Source: Candidatus Bathyarchaeota archaeon
Lineage (GTDB): Archaea > Thermoproteota > Bathyarchaeia > Bathyarchaeales > DTEX01
Direction of reading: 5' to 3'
NCBI GenBank assembly: GCA_018396635.1
Contig: JAGTQE010000005.1
Span: 11,325-75,324, forward strand
DNA: 64,000 bases
Each line of letters starts with the position of its first letter. The stretch's first letter is position 1. Made by a program: the position numbers and the translations under genes. Shown in pieces: positions 2,881-49,242 of this stretch. The notes beneath the pieces are model-generated. The model worked only from the letters and a program-made list of their open reading frames with translations, searched no databases and was not told where the DNA came from.

Positions 2881-4395
2881 TTATATACTCCATAGAGACT
2901 CTAGATGTTTCCTAATATGCTTGGAGATAACTTCATAGTATTCTTCCTCCCTATCGAGTAAAACTCTCTTAATCCTATCTCTGAAGAGCCATCTTCCATC
3001 TTCCCCTCTAGCCGATAATACTGAGCCGAATGTCACATGAAGAATCTGTCTCGCCTTAGGGTTGTCAAGATATGTCTCCTCAAGCTTCCCGTCTGTGACT
3101 TCTTCTGGCTGCCGGATCTGTGATGGGTCTGCGCTAGTATAATATGATGCCCTATCCTCCCCGAACCTTTGGATACTAAACTTAACAATCTCGCGGAATA
3201 GACTTGGATCGTGCCTCGCTATTATGCGTAGAGACTCTAGATAGCTGGTTCCAGCAGTCTTTAGGTGGATTATGTCGCCAGCTAATCTACCCATTATTGG
3301 GTATATCGAGAATTTATCGCTGCCGGAGTGTATGCTTAGCTTGTATGGTCCAAAGTTTCTGGCTATTAACGCGTGGATCTGGAACGTCCTCTCAAACTCC
3401 CCTAAATCGCCTATATAGTCGACGGCCTTCTCAAATCTGCCAACAAACCTCAGGGCTAGGCTTTGTAAGCTTATTCCTAGCCTCTTAAGCTCCAATGCTA
3501 TAAATAAGTGTTCGATTGGTTTGGTCGGGGTTTCCGTCTCATCAACGGATAGCTCAAGATCGTATCTTCCACCCTTAAACAGGTCATCTAGGAGCTCCTT
3601 CAATTTTAGGGTATGAGCGATTGCAGCAGAATACTTTACAGAAGCTCTGAGGAGATCCTCCCTTAAGAAACATAGTTCCAGGACGACTCTTCCAGCGGGA
3701 TCTTTAACTTCAAAAGTTTTCCCTAAATATCTTTCGAGGATCTCTCTCCCACTACACCTTAAAATTCCCCATGGTAAACGATTAAACTTCTCCTCTAAGA
3801 CATGGATTGGATAATTGTCTGCACCATTATCAACGTACTCTGATGGATCTATTGTATACATTGTGAAGCCCGCCGCAAACGCCTCCTTAACGTCCTCCTC
3901 AGTCTTCAAGTGATCAGCGTCGGCTGCAAAGCCATTCCGATAACCCTCTTGAAAAACCGCCCATGTAACATCATCTATAACTTCTTGAGGTGATCTTAGC
4001 GTGCGCTTCATCTCCCGCACCGACTGCTGGGCGAGGACTGGGAAGAACCTCAAATCACGTACAGCGCGTATATGTCCAGGTGTAGCTAATCCAATGCGAT
4101 CGCCTGTTCCAATGGCGGGCGTTAAACCTATTGGTATTGGCTTGGTATATGGGAAATGTTCGCGTATTTCGGCTGCGTTGTGAGGGTTGCATGGACAAAT
4201 CCTGTAGGTTAAGGATTTATCGAGGGCGCCCTCCTCCTCATGGAGAAAGTTAGCTAAGAATTTTGGGGGATTCTCTGAAGGATATATTATGACGAGCTTC
4301 CGCTCATATCCATCCCTAATCAAGAAGAAGAGAGCGTCATCCTTAATTGAGATTGAAGAATCGTAGACCTTCACCCTGCGTCCCCGTTCCTCCAT
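2881..4395 (-). CDS. tagaturonate/fructuronate epimerase (UxaE)-like protein
   Basis: 504-aa ORF. The size and the GTGDRIGLATPGHIRA motif match my memory of the UxaE family. It lies 9 nt upstream of the glycosidase-like gene on the same strand, and a uxuA gene occurs elsewhere in the window. Confidence 0.5.
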   Translation of the reverse strand: MEERGRRVKVYDSSISIKDDALFFLIRDGYERKLVIIYPSENPPKFLANFLHEEEGALDKSLTYRICPCNPHNAAEIREHFPYTKPIPIGLTPAIGTGDRIGLATPGHIRAVRDLRFFPVLAQQSVREMKRTLRSPQEVIDDVTWAVFQEGYRNGFAADADHLKTEEDVKEAFAAGFTMYTIDPSEYVDNGADNYPIHVLEEKFNRLPWGILRCSGREILERYLGKTFEVKDPAGRVVLELCFLREDLLRASVKYSAAIAHTLKLKELLDDLFKGGRYDLELSVDETETPTKPIEHLFIALELKRLGISLQSLALRFVGRFEKAVDYIGDLGEFERTFQIHALIARNFGPYKLSIHSGSDKFSIYPIMGRLAGDIIHLKTAGTSYLESLRIIARHDPSLFREIVKFSIQRFGEDRASYYTSADPSQIRQPEEVTDGKLEETYLDNPKARQILHVTFGSVLSARGEDGRWLFRDRIKRVLLDREEEYYEVISKHIRKHLESLWSI

Positions 4396-45639: not shown

Positions 45640-47262
45640 GTGCGTGGTAGGTTAGGCTTGGGGTTGAGCCGCGCCTCCCTTATATCTCTGCCGCTCATAA
45701 TCGCCTTAGCTCTCAGGCTTTATCCATCTTTAATGAGCCAGCTGCCATTCTCGACAGATTCCTGGCCGCTCATAAGAAATGCAGAGGTTCTTTTGGAGCA
45801 CACACCAGTAAACTTAGAGGAAGAGATATTCGATGGATACAATAATTATTGGCCCTCTAGCAGCATATTCGGCGCAGTAGTCTCGCTAGTTACTGGTTCA
45901 AGTCCTATGGCCGCTATGGCCCTAGGCATACCGGCCGCAGCCGCGCTTGCAATACCGTTATTCTACACGCTTACATGCAGGTTCTATGGAAAAATCTCTC
46001 CAGCCTTCATTGCATCAATAATTTTGGCCACCTCATTCCCATATGCTCTGTCAACAGCTGGCGCTATCAAAGAGACTTATGCCAGCCCACTACTCATGTT
46101 GCTCGTCCTAATTGTTCTGAGCTCTTGGGGTTGGAGGGGCGCTGCGCTCTTTGCGATATCTTCAGCGACTTTAGCAATGACCCATCATCTAACATCTGTG
46201 GTGGCGCTGGCGGCTTTGGCTTTCATGATGCTATCAGATAGTCTTAAAAGGTTTCTTAGGGGCATGGTTTTGGAGCGGCTCCGCCCCACGCTGACATTTA
46301 TGTTGGCCACTTCGATAGCGCTACACTTTCTGTTGTATGCATATAGAGGCTTTAAGGTAACCTTAACATTAAATGATTTTATCACTGTAATCTCATATCA
46401 GGTTGTAGCATTCGCATTCGCACTTTATGTGGCGCGTTCCTCCGAGGGAGGGATTGGATCATGGAGGGGGATAAAATGTTTTTTAGCCGCAGCAATACCT
46501 ACAGTAGTCCTTACACTCTGCACGTTTAGGCGAATAACTCCTGATGCTCCGATGCTCCCGAGAAGATATATAATTTATGGATTGCCATTCGCCGCATCTG
46601 CACCCCTAGCTCTTATTGGGTTCTGGGAGCTTAAGAAAGCTGGTGGGGGTTACGCGAAGCTTGAGCCTCTCTTCTGGCTGGCGTCTGTTCTTGGTTTTGA
46701 GATATACGCCGTGTTTGGAGGTCCCCCTGTAGGTCTAACCTTAGCGTATAGAATGATAAACTTTATGTGGCCTCCGCTGGCTATGTTATGTGGCTATGGG
46801 GTTTATAGGCTGCTCTCGGCCGGTAGGCTAGCCGCCAAGATATTTTCAGCCACATCTATAGTGTTGATGGCCGTGCTAGGATGCTACAGCAGCTATGCGG
46901 CAACTATCGTTGGGGAGCGCTATATGGGTTACTTCTGGCTCTATAGGGCTCAGGAGTTTAGGGCAGGTGTTTGGATTTCGAGTCTATACAATAATAGAAC
47001 TGTCTTTGGAGATGTGAAGTACGCTTATCTTTTAAGAGGGTACTTCGAAGTAAAATATAATGAGTTTCAGGGTCTACTGTACTTGTCTGGATTAGATAAA
47101 TCGAAGCCAAGCATACTCATAACTTATGATTTAATGAGTAGAAACGGCTATGTTATTTATGGTGGATATAGTGTAGATTTGCCCCTTGGGTGGGTTAAAA
47201 GGCTCCATAATTTAAGCCTCATATACTTGAATGGTGTGGTGAACATTTATTTAGGAGACTAA
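45640..47262 (+). CDS. polytopic membrane protein, GT-C-type glycosyltransferase-like (ArnT/PMT-like)
   Basis: 540 aa with more than 10 TM helices and an early loop, LPFSTDSWPL. It sits beside the epimerase gene. The family assignment is tentative. Confidence 0.35.
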   Translation: MRGRLGLGLSRASLISLPLIIALALRLYPSLMSQLPFSTDSWPLIRNAEVLLEHTPVNLEEEIFDGYNNYWPSSSIFGAVVSLVTGSSPMAAMALGIPAAAALAIPLFYTLTCRFYGKISPAFIASIILATSFPYALSTAGAIKETYASPLLMLLVLIVLSSWGWRGAALFAISSATLAMTHHLTSVVALAALAFMMLSDSLKRFLRGMVLERLRPTLTFMLATSIALHFLLYAYRGFKVTLTLNDFITVISYQVVAFAFALYVARSSEGGIGSWRGIKCFLAAAIPTVVLTLCTFRRITPDAPMLPRRYIIYGLPFAASAPLALIGFWELKKAGGGYAKLEPLFWLASVLGFEIYAVFGGPPVGLTLAYRMINFMWPPLAMLCGYGVYRLLSAGRLAAKIFSATSIVLMAVLGCYSSYAATIVGERYMGYFWLYRAQEFRAGVWISSLYNNRTVFGDVKYAYLLRGYFEVKYNEFQGLLYLSGLDKSKPSILITYDLMSRNGYVIYGGYSVDLPLGWVKRLHNLSLIYLNGVVNIYLGD

Positions 47263-47650
47263 GCCTATAATCGCCGATAACCTCTTTGGTTAAGTTAGGC
47301 TTAGATTCTGCTACGATAAGGTTTCCAGCTAAATATATGCTGAGGGCACATGAACCGCGTTCTACACCTCCTAAAGACGATAATATTTTCAGGTTTATGA
47401 CGGGTTTCTCAGCTTCACTTCTCCGCCTAATGCTTTCAGATCTTATGGCGACCGCTCTGCCCAATAGGTCAGGCGTGGGCCGTATTTGCGTTAATCTATA
47501 GGCTTAAACTCGGCTGGCGGCGCATCAACCGCTAAGATTTTGATGGCTGCCTTTAAGGTAGATGTAGCGTGGATATTTAAAGCGTGGGTTCAAACCGAAA
47601 AGAAAAATAGAAACCCAAACAAAAACAAAGCAAGAATTATACAGGATTCT

Positions 47651-47694
47651 TACTCAAAAACAGCCAAAAATACGCCTAAAATGAGCAAAATGAT
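47651..47694 (-). terminator. oligo-T tract region downstream of tRNA-Ser
   Basis: Read on the minus strand, the sequence just 3' of the tRNA contains TTTT, TTTTT and TTTTT runs (ATCATTTTGCTCATTTTAGGCGTATTTTTGGCTGTTTTTGAG). Archaeal termination typically uses oligo-T. Confidence 0.4.
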
Positions 47695-47746
47695 TGGCGC
47701 CGGGGGTGGGATTTGAACCCACGCGGCCCAGATTGGGCCACAGGCT

Positions 47747-47763
47747 TTCTAACACTTCCCGGT
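47747..47763 (-). other. tRNA-Ser intron 3 (17 nt, canonical 37/38)
   Basis: 24 nt lie between CAGGC and GCCTG. Removing ACCGGGAAGTGTTAGAA leaves the loop CTGGAGA. The central helix is CTGG/TTAG (2 WC + 2 GU pairs) with bulges AGA and AAA. Confidence 0.55.
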
Positions 47764-47771
47764 CTCCAGGC

Positions 47772-47801
47772 CTGAGCTTGTATTTATCTCTCTTTTATGA
47801 T
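47772..47801 (-). other. tRNA-Ser intron 2 (30 nt, anticodon stem, position 29/30)
   Basis: The central helix GAGC/GCTC is flanked by the bulges AGA and AGG. CAG is repeated at both junctions. Removal restores the stem strand CAGGC, which pairs with GCCTG. Confidence 0.55.
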
Positions 47802-47815
47802 CTGCTCCCTACCGG

Positions 47816-47837
47816 ATTCCCCGCCGCTGTTTTGGCT
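47816..47837 (-). other. tRNA-Ser intron 1 (22 nt, D-loop, after position 15)
   Basis: Removal gives the canonical D-loop TAGCCGGTAG (A14 G15 CC G18 G19 T A21) between the TCC/GGA stems. There is a BHB-like fold: 4-bp helix TCCT/GGGA, 3-nt bulges AGA and ATC, and inner helix GCC/GGC. Boundaries were set by hand. Confidence 0.5.
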
Positions 47838-47880
47838 CTAGGAGACCCCGGCTCCAAGATATATCTTTATTTGTGTTAGT

Positions 47881-47889
47881 CTATTTAAA
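47881..47889 (-). promoter_or_regulatory. TATA-like box for tRNA-Ser
   Basis: TTTAAATAG on the minus strand lies 29-37 nt upstream of the tRNA 5' end. Confidence 0.4.
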
Positions 47890-47898
47890 CTGTTTGAT

Positions 47899-48923
47899 TT
47901 ATTTCCAGAGTTTAGGATATGTTCCTCTGGGCATTAGGACCCTGTCTGTTCTAACCATTATTCCGTGGGTGGCTTTCAGGATTTCCTCCGTGCTTGCTAT
48001 GGCCGTTCCGAGGGCTACTGCCTCACCCTTCAGTGTGAATATGGCGACTTTATCGGAGGGCTTTATTCCAGACTCCACATGCGTTATTCCGGGAGCAGTT
48101 AAGTGTGCGCCGTGACAAACAGCGTCTACGGCTGAGTCTCTAATGAAGATTTTAGGCATGAAGTCAAGGGCTCTCTCCATTGGAAGAATAAATTTCCTGA
48201 GTATCTTTATGTCATTTGTCTCAAGCCACTTATTGTAAAGGTATAATGTATCGTGTAACGTAACTATATTATTCTCAGTGAATGGGCCGGCTCTTATTCT
48301 GCGCAGCTCATGCATATGTGCGCCGCAACCTAAAGCTCTGCCTATGTCAAATACGAGCTTCCTAATGTATGTTCCAGCCTCGCATCCAACCTTAAACAGG
48401 ATGTTTCTGCCCTCTATCTCCAATATGTCTAAGTAATAGATTGTTCTTGTGCGCAGAACTTTCTTTACTGATGCCCTAGCTGGTGGCCTCTGATAAATTT
48501 TGCCCTTAAACTCATCGAATACTTCCCTAATTCTCCTCTCTGACATATCCTTATGGAGCTTCATCACACCAACATACTCTTTGCCAGCTATTAGTAATGC
48601 TTGTATAACCTTGGTTGCCTCCTCTAGGGCTATGGGCAGAACGCCGGTCACTTTGGGATCTCCACGCCAATAATCTAAGCTAGGGGCTGTAAGGGCTCTA
48701 GGGTCCCTCCGTGACCGGCATGCTCAATATTTAGTATGCGTTTAACCCATGCTGTAACCTCATGGCTTGATGGACCTGGCGGCTTGTCCAAGTTTATTAT
48801 GCCGAATTTTATTATGTCTGGGTATGGGCGTTCCTCAGGCTTACATCCATACCGTGGGTCTGTCTCATCATCAGACTTTGTTAGCAGCTCCCGCTTTACA
48901 TCCCATGGGGCCTTTTCCTGCAT
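47899..48923 (-). CDS. cbf5: tRNA/rRNA pseudouridine synthase Cbf5 (H/ACA RNP catalytic subunit), interrupted by a 38-nt intron
   Basis: Two track ORFs (48675..48923 and 47899..48651) end and begin inside the TruB motif. Exon 1 ends ...IEHAGHGGTL and exon 2 begins DPKVTGVLPIALEEATK. Joining 48698|48659 gives 328 aa with a C-terminal PUA-like region. The gene is next to rpl14e. Confidence 0.85.
48660..48697 (-). other. BHB-like intron within cbf5 pre-mRNA
   Basis: The 38 nt (not a multiple of 3) contain an in-frame TAG, and GA is repeated at both junctions. The fold has outer helices GGTCAC/GTGACC and GGGA/TCCC, 3-nt bulges AGA/AGA around the central helix CCCT/GTGG (one mismatch), and inner helix GCC/GGC. 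Confidence 0.7.
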
Positions 48924-48945: not shown

Positions 48946-49242
48946 TTAAGTCTGGGCTTTTGCTTCCCTAACCTCCTTAACCTGCATATATTCCTCGAGC
49001 ATTCCAGATTCGACTAGAGCTTTATAAACCTCCTCATCAGACGCCCCTCTTCTTACCTTCAGAACCTTCTCCGTTGGTTTTAGATGGTTTATGTTGACGC
49101 GTCTCCGCCTAACTCCAGTAACATTTTTTGGGCCGGTAATAAGTACAAAATTTTTATCTATTATGTCGAGTATTACGCATCGCCTGCCAGACTCCCTACC
49201 TCTAACCTTAACGCAGACCCTGCCAATCTCTATTGCCGGCAT
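48946..49242 (-). CDS. rpl14e: 50S ribosomal protein L14e
   Basis: 98 aa with the KOW-like N-terminus MPAIEIGRVCVKVRGRESGRRCVILDIID. It has the conserved neighbourhood with cbf5. Confidence 0.85.
   Translation of the reverse strand: MPAIEIGRVCVKVRGRESGRRCVILDIIDKNFVLITGPKNVTGVRRRRVNINHLKPTEKVLKVRRGASDEEVYKALVESGMLEEYMQVKEVREAKAQT

Follow-up and report, generated by a model that had tools for sequence, protein, structure and literature searches.

Known cbf5 Introns and a Bathyarchaeia Counterpart

Protein-coding introns are extremely rare in Archaea. One of the genes concerned is cbf5, which is near-universal and single-copy in archaea and encodes Cbf5, the pseudouridine synthase of H/ACA ribonucleoproteins. 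The DNA analyzed here (the window) is a stretch of 64,000 nucleotides from a hot-spring Candidatus Bathyarchaeota archaeon (assembly GCA_018396635.1, contig JAGTQE010000005.1, positions 11,325 to 75,324). Its cbf5 gene very probably contains an archaeal bulge-helix-bulge (BHB) intron, located at 48660..48697 on the minus strand and interrupting the pre-mRNA after the first base of the catalytic Asp codon. The kind of intron and its site are already known from Crenarchaeota; the host class, Bathyarchaeia, is new.

In the survey of Yokobori et al. (2009; PMC2738675) the cbf5 intron, 16-44 bp in length, was present only in Desulfurococcales and Sulfolobales and absent from Thermoproteales, Thaumarchaeota, and Korarchaeum; its gain was dated to the ancestor of Desulfurococcales and Sulfolobales. 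These introns disrupt the catalytic codon, their BHBs are mostly unconventional, and the cut falls between bulge residues 2 and 3 (PMC2738675). Cleavage of a relaxed BHB by the endonuclease EndA was given as the mechanism for crenarchaeal cbf5, with complementary DNA (cDNA) evidence of splicing (PMC2738675). Reviews published in 2020 and 2023 still limit the cbf5 intron to a small set of Crenarchaeota that are related to one another (PMC7714728, PMC10485636); Schwarz et al. (2020; PMC7714728) listed crenarchaeal cbf5 mRNA as the only additional archaeal BHB intron reported. A full-text search, with most subscription journals outside its reach, returned no paper in which an mRNA intron, of cbf5 or of another gene, is linked to Bathyarchaeota or Bathyarchaeia.

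The cbf5 gene of the window lies on the minus strand and is split in two open reading frames (ORFs) of 82 and 250 aa. The gene parts and the elements of the putative BHB are as follows (a caret marks a cut or junction; MFE, element of the minimum free energy structure):

48698..48923, minus strand: cbf5 exon 1, from the ATG at 48923 to G48698 (Asp codon base 1); residues 1-75 plus one base
48660..48697, minus strand: intron, 38 nt, AGCCCUUACAGCCCCUAGCUUAGAUUAUUGGCGUGGAG; in-frame UAG, frame shifted
47899..48659, minus strand: cbf5 exon 2, from AU of the Asp codon to the stop at 47901-47899; residues 76-328
48711..48719, minus strand: outer exon-exon helix, 5' strand, GCCGGUCAC, codons Ala-Gly-His; pairs with 48643-48651; MFE; 94.8% paired across 32 sequences
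48704..48707, minus strand: BHB outer helix h, 5' strand, GGGA; pairs with UCCC at 48655-48658; MFE; 93.8% paired
48700..48703, minus strand: central helix, exon strand, CCCU, Thr and Leu codons; pairs with GUGG at 48662-48665
48697..48699, minus strand: 5' bulge A-G^A; predicted cut G48698/A48697
48694..48696, minus strand: inner helix h', 5' strand, GCC; pairs with GGC at 48666-48668; MFE
48662..48668, minus strand: intron 3' arm, GGC (inner) then GUGG (central); from the register and pair counts
48659..48661, minus strand: 3' bulge A-G^A; predicted cut G48660/A48659; RNA junction in metatranscriptome X12
48643..48658, minus strand: exon-2 side, UCCC (h), AAA (internal loop), and GUGACCGGC (outer; Val-Thr-Gly); MFE and pair counts

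Comparison with Crenarchaeal and Other BHB Introns

A profile made from the alignment rows of PMC2738675 (alignment A2) led to named crenarchaeal Cbf5 fragments and from these to the DNA of five species, to which the junction rule was applied. The resulting intron lengths were:

A. pernix: 38 nt by the junction rule; published, 38 bp
S. islandicus: 23 nt by the junction rule; unlisted (S. solfataricus 22, S. shibatae 23)
I. aggregans: 39 nt by the junction rule; published, 39 bp
S. marinus: 36 nt by the junction rule; published, 36 bp
S. tokodaii: 31 nt by the junction rule; published, 31 bp

All five introns shared site, phase, and arms, in the register GGGA-CCCU-AG^A-GCCC...GGGC-GGGG-AG^A-UCCN. 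A first-pass annotation of the window had suggested comparing the intron position with that in crenarchaeal cbf5, and site, phase, and register proved identical in the five species. Judged from sequence, the Bathyarchaeia intron is the positional counterpart of the Desulfurococcales/Sulfolobales cbf5 intron.

Like the crenarchaeal intron (Watanabe et al., 2002; Yoshinari et al., 2006; PMC2738675), that of the window follows base 1 of the Asp codon in the context ACC CUN G^AY CCN, falls in the same size class (its 38 nt being the A. pernix length), and is too short to encode anything. Both groups have the BHB register GGGA, CCCU, AG^A, inner helix, GGGG-like arm, AG^A, UCCN, and in both groups gene callers yield one ORF with DKCLD and a second with TruB_N/PUA. 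The inner-helix sequences GCCC/GGGC, which are free of exon constraint, are shared between the window's subclade and A. pernix, S. islandicus, and I. aggregans.

The Bathyarchaeia intron differs from its crenarchaeal counterpart in four respects. Its host is outside the published Desulfurococcales/Sulfolobales range. In place of the crenarchaeal GGGG arm, the window's subclade has GUGG or AUGG, so that a C·U or U·U mismatch is conserved there. The exon flanks pair over a longer stretch and lose fewer pairs, with a mean of 12.3/13 in the 33 intron-bearing genes and 13/13 in the window; in A. pernix, 6/9 pairs of the 9-bp outer helix form. Finally, the crenarchaeal intron has cDNA evidence and a cleavage precedent, whereas endonuclease cleavage in Bathyarchaeia is proposed by analogy.

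As in archaeal tRNA and rRNA BHB introns, two 3-nt bulges lie 4 bp apart, the predicted cut falls between bulge nucleotides 2 and 3, and the interior varies in both length and sequence. Unlike those introns, the cbf5 intron has an mRNA substrate in which half of the motif is coding, so that synonymous codons are constrained, and no tRNA body aids recognition. The BHB intron of Haloferax volcanii HVO_1309 (PMC7714728) is another case in which the splicing endonuclease acts on an mRNA and not on tRNA or rRNA, but it sits in the 5' untranslated region of a euryarchaeal gene and interrupts no catalytic residue. The form of the endonuclease in H. volcanii also differs and is written alpha2 TSEN (PMC10485636).

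Gene Structure, Intron Boundaries, and RNA Fold

In the ORF list the upstream ORF (48675..48923, minus strand, 82 aa) ends in HAGHGGTLEPLQPLA followed by a stop, and the downstream ORF (47899..48651, minus strand, 250 aa) begins with (V)TGVLPIAL. Deletion of the 38 nt gives ...GHGGTL^DPKVTGVLPIAL, with the catalytic Asp codon rebuilt as G^AU, and joining 48923..48698 to 48659..47899 gives a 328-aa protein containing GHGGTLDPKVTGVLPIAL. The first-pass annotation had claimed exactly this: two ORFs joined by a 38-nt deletion into a 328-aa product with GGTLDP restored. Translation of the spliced sequence confirmed it, as did the match of the product to the NCBIfam Cbf5 equivalog NF003280 (467.5 bits against a cutoff of 242, covering profile positions 2-319 of 323). 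The Cbf5 equivalog TIGR00425 gave 441 bits.

Publicly available protein calls are fragments of 250-251 aa, both for the window (P0001) and for its closest relatives (P0018 and P0071), and the intron is unannotated. This is an annotation problem, as gene callers deliver a 250-aa "Cbf5" without the catalytic Asp, and completeness and marker-gene pipelines mis-score such metagenome-assembled genomes (MAGs).

From the window sequence alone, three offsets are possible for the 38-nt deletion, a GA repeat standing at both ends. The 2-nt ambiguity stated in the first-pass annotation is therefore real at that level, and relatives together with the BHB rule settle on the same 48660..48697 that it had chosen. 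In the relatives the exon-2-frame codon before Pro is one for D, N, or Y, which leaves G^AY as the only possible junction; exon 2 supplies only AY, and the G of the Asp codon therefore belongs to exon 1. With the cut between bulge nucleotides 2 and 3, the intron is predicted to be exactly 48697..48660 and the junction CUAG^AUCCC.

The MFE of the 91-nt region was -35.3 kcal/mol (z = -3.04 against dinucleotide shuffles), and 0/200 shuffles were as stable. The full register reads 5' GCCGGUCAC-GGA-GGGA-CCCU-(AG^A)-GCC...loop...GGC-GUGG-(AG^A)-UCCC-AAA-GUGACCGGC 3', with the bulges in parentheses. Its handedness is that of tRNA introns, with the central helix and then the bulge on each strand, and this arrangement fits every locus. 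Exon-exon helices of 9 bp and 4 bp are separated by a 3x3 internal loop, and the inner intron helix has 3 bp. The helices GGTCAC/GTGACC, GGGA/UCCC, and GCC/GGC and the AGA bulges proposed earlier are all present, the outermost helix being really 9 bp long (GCCGGUCAC/GUGACCGGC). In the central 4-bp helix, whose sequence the first-pass annotation did not give, CCCU at the end of exon 1 faces GUGG of the intron 3' arm as C-G, C-G, a C·U mismatch, and U·G. A strict hBHBh' was defined as a fully paired 4-bp center, two 3-nt bulges, and at least two Watson-Crick pairs in each outer helix; the motif in the window conforms in its bulges and outer helices and departs from the strict form in the third central pair, C·U. 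The position of bulge and predicted cut is identical in all intron-bearing Bathyarchaeia loci and all five crenarchaeal loci.

A self-splicing group I or group II intron was rejected as a candidate. In such introns the ribozyme core is hundreds of nucleotides long and recognizable by Rfam models; the insert has only 38 nt, and no Rfam family reached its gathering score in the window.

The Intron in Related Bathyarchaeia

A scan of relatives, with one genome per GTDB species, returned 80 cbf5 loci (L001-L080). The closest loci were 58-89% identical in their best segment and were all titled as Candidatus Bathyarchaeia or Bathyarchaeota MAGs except L003 ("uncultured archaeon"). Hot springs or hydrothermal sediments were the source of many of them. 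An insert of 18-45 nt was present in 32 of the 80 loci, at the same phase-1 G^AY site between the Leu and Pro codons, and all 32 inserts fit one BHB register. Loci without an insert comprised six from Bathyarchaeia (L014, L025, L027, L028, L032, and L065) and all those scanned from Hadarchaeia, Methanocellales, Thermoplasmatota, Asgard, DPANN, and Thaumarchaeota. There are also many Bathyarchaeota Cbf5 proteins of 333 aa (P0002 and others), 64-69% identical, with an intact GGTLDPKVTG.

The intron-bearing genes were aligned in a fixed register of 56 columns (alignment A1; 32 distinct sequences). Standard pairs occupied 92.8% of cells, compared with 28-50% when the 3' partners were slid by 1-3 columns. 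Both sides had changed in 53 cells, and 0/500 shuffles did as well in pairing, covariation score, or number of double changes. In the central helix the coding exon covaries with the intron (CG, UA, and UG pairs), giving the combinations CUCU/AGAG, CCUU/AAGG, and CCCU/GGGG; with these, the helix is fully paired in 17/32 sequences. In the other 15/32, which form the window's subclade with the intron arm GUGG or AUGG, C·U or U·U stands at the third central position. The BHB of this subclade is conserved and relaxed, as in most published cbf5 cases. The inner helix has 3-13 bp in the relatives, with double changes in four of the five pairs counted.

No insert can be read through. Among the 33 intron-bearing genes, 19 inserts shift the frame, and each of the 14 whose length is a multiple of three holds a stop codon, so production of Cbf5 from these genes requires removal of the insert.

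The 13 exon-exon pairs are formed by the codons for A-G-H-G-G-T and D-P-K-V-T-G. Amino acids alone set four of the nine outer pairs, even in intronless genes; the rest depend on third positions. Intron-bearing genes kept a mean of 12.3/13 pairs, with all 13 in 20/33 genes including the window, while intronless genes kept 8.3/13 (perfect in 0/46) and intronless Bathyarchaeia 7.8/13. The Mann-Whitney test gave p = 3e-13 for all genes and p = 3e-5 within Bathyarchaeia, values that ignore kinship and so overstate independence. The dataset amounts to a clean natural experiment on the limits that an RNA structure sets to synonymous codon choice in the exons beside it.

The universally conserved A-G-H and V-T-G motifs around the catalytic Asp encode partly self-complementary RNA (48643..48719; L001-L080). 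This self-complementarity may predispose the site to a BHB intron.

Three further loci stood out. L043 (CAZBGY010000003.1, about 3210-3250), titled Bathyarchaeia, contains a cbf5 intron of 33 nt whose inner helix spans 13 bp, and in a neighbor-joining (NJ) tree of Cbf5 (no support values) its protein lay away from other Bathyarchaeia, beside a Thaumarchaeota sequence; it could be a further intron-bearing lineage or a long-branch effect. In DNA runs X2 and X5, a loose end at window position 48692 led to contigs of another organism with a 21-nt insert, AGCCCAAUUUUAGGCGGGGUA, at the same cbf5 site, so several intron-bearing cbf5 genes co-occur in these hot-spring communities. L077 (DATKTW010000034.1), titled "Candidatus Nanopelagicaceae bacterium" after an actinobacterial family, encodes an Asgard-like archaeal Cbf5, and its contig is probably mis-binned.

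The Intron in DNA and RNA

At least 96% of sampled words from the locus were present in eleven DNA metagenomes. DNA contigs from X1, X2, X5, and X6, belonging to four studies, span 48660-48697 with 0 mismatches, so the 38 nt are genomic. A sharp depth spike occurred at 48356..48408 in all DNA runs (in X6, 786 against about 50), accompanied by many short contigs; this segment codes for the strongly conserved Cbf5 region GCGAHMHELRR, near-identical across many community members.

In metatranscriptome X12 the locus was present as assembled contigs, two of which cross the predicted junction. Contig 9 (344 nt) aligned up to 48661 and continued with AGGGTCCCT, which equals window positions 48700-48708, so that its end reads ...GGGATCT+AGGGTCCCT. 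Contig 11 (757 nt) aligned from 48693 and was preceded by GCCGGTCACTTT, which equals window positions 48643-48654; its start reads GCCGGTCACTTT+GGG.TCTAGGG. By string match, the end of contig 9 was found in the sequence from which the 38 nt had been deleted and was absent from the genomic sequence. The start of contig 11 matches the deleted sequence provided that the base aligned at 48696 is read as A. No X12 contig contained the intron interior, and RNA depth was 0 over 48671-48687 even at 80% likeness, compared with 36-257 in the DNA runs. The junction CTAG^ATCCC expected in RNA by the first-pass annotation was thus seen in two X12 contigs, both compatible with the deleted form alone. These are direct evidence of a spliced mRNA with the junction CUAG^AUCCC, in the form of assembled contigs from a single run.

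Another X12 contig, from an organism about 80% identical, reads ...ACU UUA GAU CCC... without interruption; it may be a spliced transcript or an intronless gene and was not counted. RNA run X24 had no coverage of the locus. At window position 48963, in the C-terminal end of an L14e-like ORF (48946..49242, minus strand), the X12 contig had a 9-nt in-frame deletion, and it also differed by about 1% substitutions, so the expressed strain is a close variant and not the window's exact genome.

Proposed Splicing Mechanism

The insert is present in DNA and gone from RNA at the predicted junction, its BHB is conserved and covaries, and its removal is obligatory. In the transcript, the exon flanks would pair as 9-bp and 4-bp helices around the 3x3 internal loop, CCCU of exon 1 would pair with GUGG of the intron, and the intron ends would pair as GCC/GGC. 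This pairing would present two AGA bulges 4 bp apart. The tRNA-splicing endonuclease EndA would then cut each bulge between bases 2 and 3, and an RtcB-type ligase would join CUAG to AUCCC, restoring GGTLDP and an open frame for the 328-aa Cbf5. By analogy with crenarchaeal cbf5, we infer EndA cleavage and RtcB ligation in Bathyarchaeia, together with a broad-specificity form of EndA that tolerates the central-helix C·U mismatch. A BHB-type, endonuclease-spliced cbf5 intron, as originally proposed, has the support of the crenarchaeal match, the covariation, the obligatory removal, the RNA junction, and the DNA contigs, with the EndA step itself as the inferred part.

Several points weigh against this interpretation. 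The C·U mismatch in the central helix means that the motif is not a strict hBHBh'. The RNA evidence comes from one metatranscriptome, as assembled contigs with short junction overhangs (9 nt in one, 12 nt plus 5 in the other). The X12 strain diverges by about 1% from the window, and the DNA compared came from other samples, which leaves room for a very recent, precise intron loss in that strain. Raw-read metatranscriptomes X21-X23, from the study that produced DNA runs X6-X9, gave 0 reads at 3-5% sampling. For the closest relative, L008, X12 contained only a 35-nt contig at the junction, where spliced and unspliced forms differ by one base.

Origin of the Intron

The same intron occurs at the same base in at least 33 Bathyarchaeia genomes, which implies either that the published dating is too young or that the intron or its site is mobile or recurrent. 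The Cbf5 NJ tree placed the window's protein inside Bathyarchaeia and far from the crenarchaeal sequences, and it showed intron-bearing and intronless lineages interleaved within Bathyarchaeia. Because the intron-bearing genes of Crenarchaeota and Bathyarchaeia lie far apart in this tree, the two groups did not recently exchange the cbf5 gene as such. Three scenarios are compatible with the data: an old intron that was lost many times, lateral movement of the intron only, and recurrent gain at a predisposed site.

There is about an even chance that the Bathyarchaeia intron was gained independently or transferred laterally, perhaps at a predisposed site, and was not inherited from a common ancestor. 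Its presence is patchy, many Bathyarchaeia being intronless (the six loci and the 333-aa proteins), and it is lacking in Thermoproteales, Korarchaeum, and Thaumarchaeota. The distance between the two intron-bearing groups in the NJ tree points the same way, and independent gain in particular is consistent with the four of nine outer pairs that amino-acid motifs fix even in intronless genes. De novo convergence, on the other hand, has to account for features common to the window's subclade and A. pernix, S. islandicus, and I. aggregans: the insertion base, the AG^A bulges, and the exon-free arms GCCC...GGGC. On sequence grounds the shared arms favor a common origin, by descent or transfer, over such convergence.

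A more tentative reading, which we consider possible but rather unlikely, is that the cbf5 intron is ancestral to Bathyarchaeia and Thermoprotei, was lost many times, and was retained mainly in thermophiles, where its splicing from within the catalytic codon may couple Cbf5 output to EndA activity or temperature. The losses would then include, with the same reserve, Thermoproteales, Korarchaeia, Nitrososphaeria, and most mesophilic Bathyarchaeia. If this reading were true, the cbf5 intron would be the oldest known protein-coding intron in Archaea.

Alternatives to Splicing

A first alternative to splicing, very improbable and contradicted by the present evidence, is a pseudogene, in which the 38-nt insertion inactivated cbf5 and its function was lost or came from another copy. 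The gene calls look the part, with two ORFs predicted and only the 250-aa fragment in protein sets. However, 32 relatives at the species level have retained an insert at this very base, and their exons show strong protein conservation and no other disruptions; the inserts covary so as to keep the BHB, the exons are constrained at synonymous sites, and the RNA contigs show precise removal. An intact copy elsewhere, one of the conditions that the first-pass annotation had set for a pseudogene, was found neither by tblastn in the 64-kb window nor from the same assembly among the 80 loci of the relatives scan, and cbf5 is near-universally a single-copy gene.

Translational recoding without RNA splicing, either ribosome bypass of the 38 nt (T4 gene 60 type) or frameshifting, has a negligible probability. 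The stop soon after the Leu codon and the stable hairpin at the gap are superficially bypass-like, but there is no matching pair of take-off and landing codons (CUA ... GAU), relatives have gaps of anywhere between 18 and 45 nt with an unchanging BHB geometry, and the deleted form is seen at the RNA level. The identical crenarchaeal element was, moreover, experimentally spliced, with cDNA evidence (PMC2738675).

An assembly or sequencing artefact, an a priori possibility for any metagenome-derived sequence and one that had been raised for the 38 nt, is just as negligible given the mismatch-free contigs of four studies (X1, X2, X5, and X6), the word coverage in eleven DNA runs, and the homologous inserts in relatives.

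Neighboring tRNA-Like Gene

Across the whole 64-kb window, ARAGORN reported 0 tRNAs and Rfam 0 RNA families at gathering score; any tRNA genes in the window probably all contain non-canonical introns that disrupt them. For 47200-48000, Rfam in E-value mode returned chance-level matches only, which happened to cover a T-arm. The first-pass annotation had placed a triple-intron tRNA gene 46 bp from cbf5, and a tRNA-like gene does begin 46 nt past the cbf5 stop:

47695..47852, minus strand: tRNA-like gene, 158 nt

Brute-force single deletions of the 158-nt gene combined with ARAGORN gave inconsistent isotypes and introns and were not used. The claim of four endonuclease substrates within 1.3 kb depends on this putative triple-intron structure. 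The gene has the acceptor halves GCCGGGG and CCCCGGC, a discriminator G, an encoded CCA, and a T-arm GUGGG-UUCAAAU-CCCAC. At 158 nt it exceeds the length of a tRNA by about 80 nt, an excess compatible with several introns.

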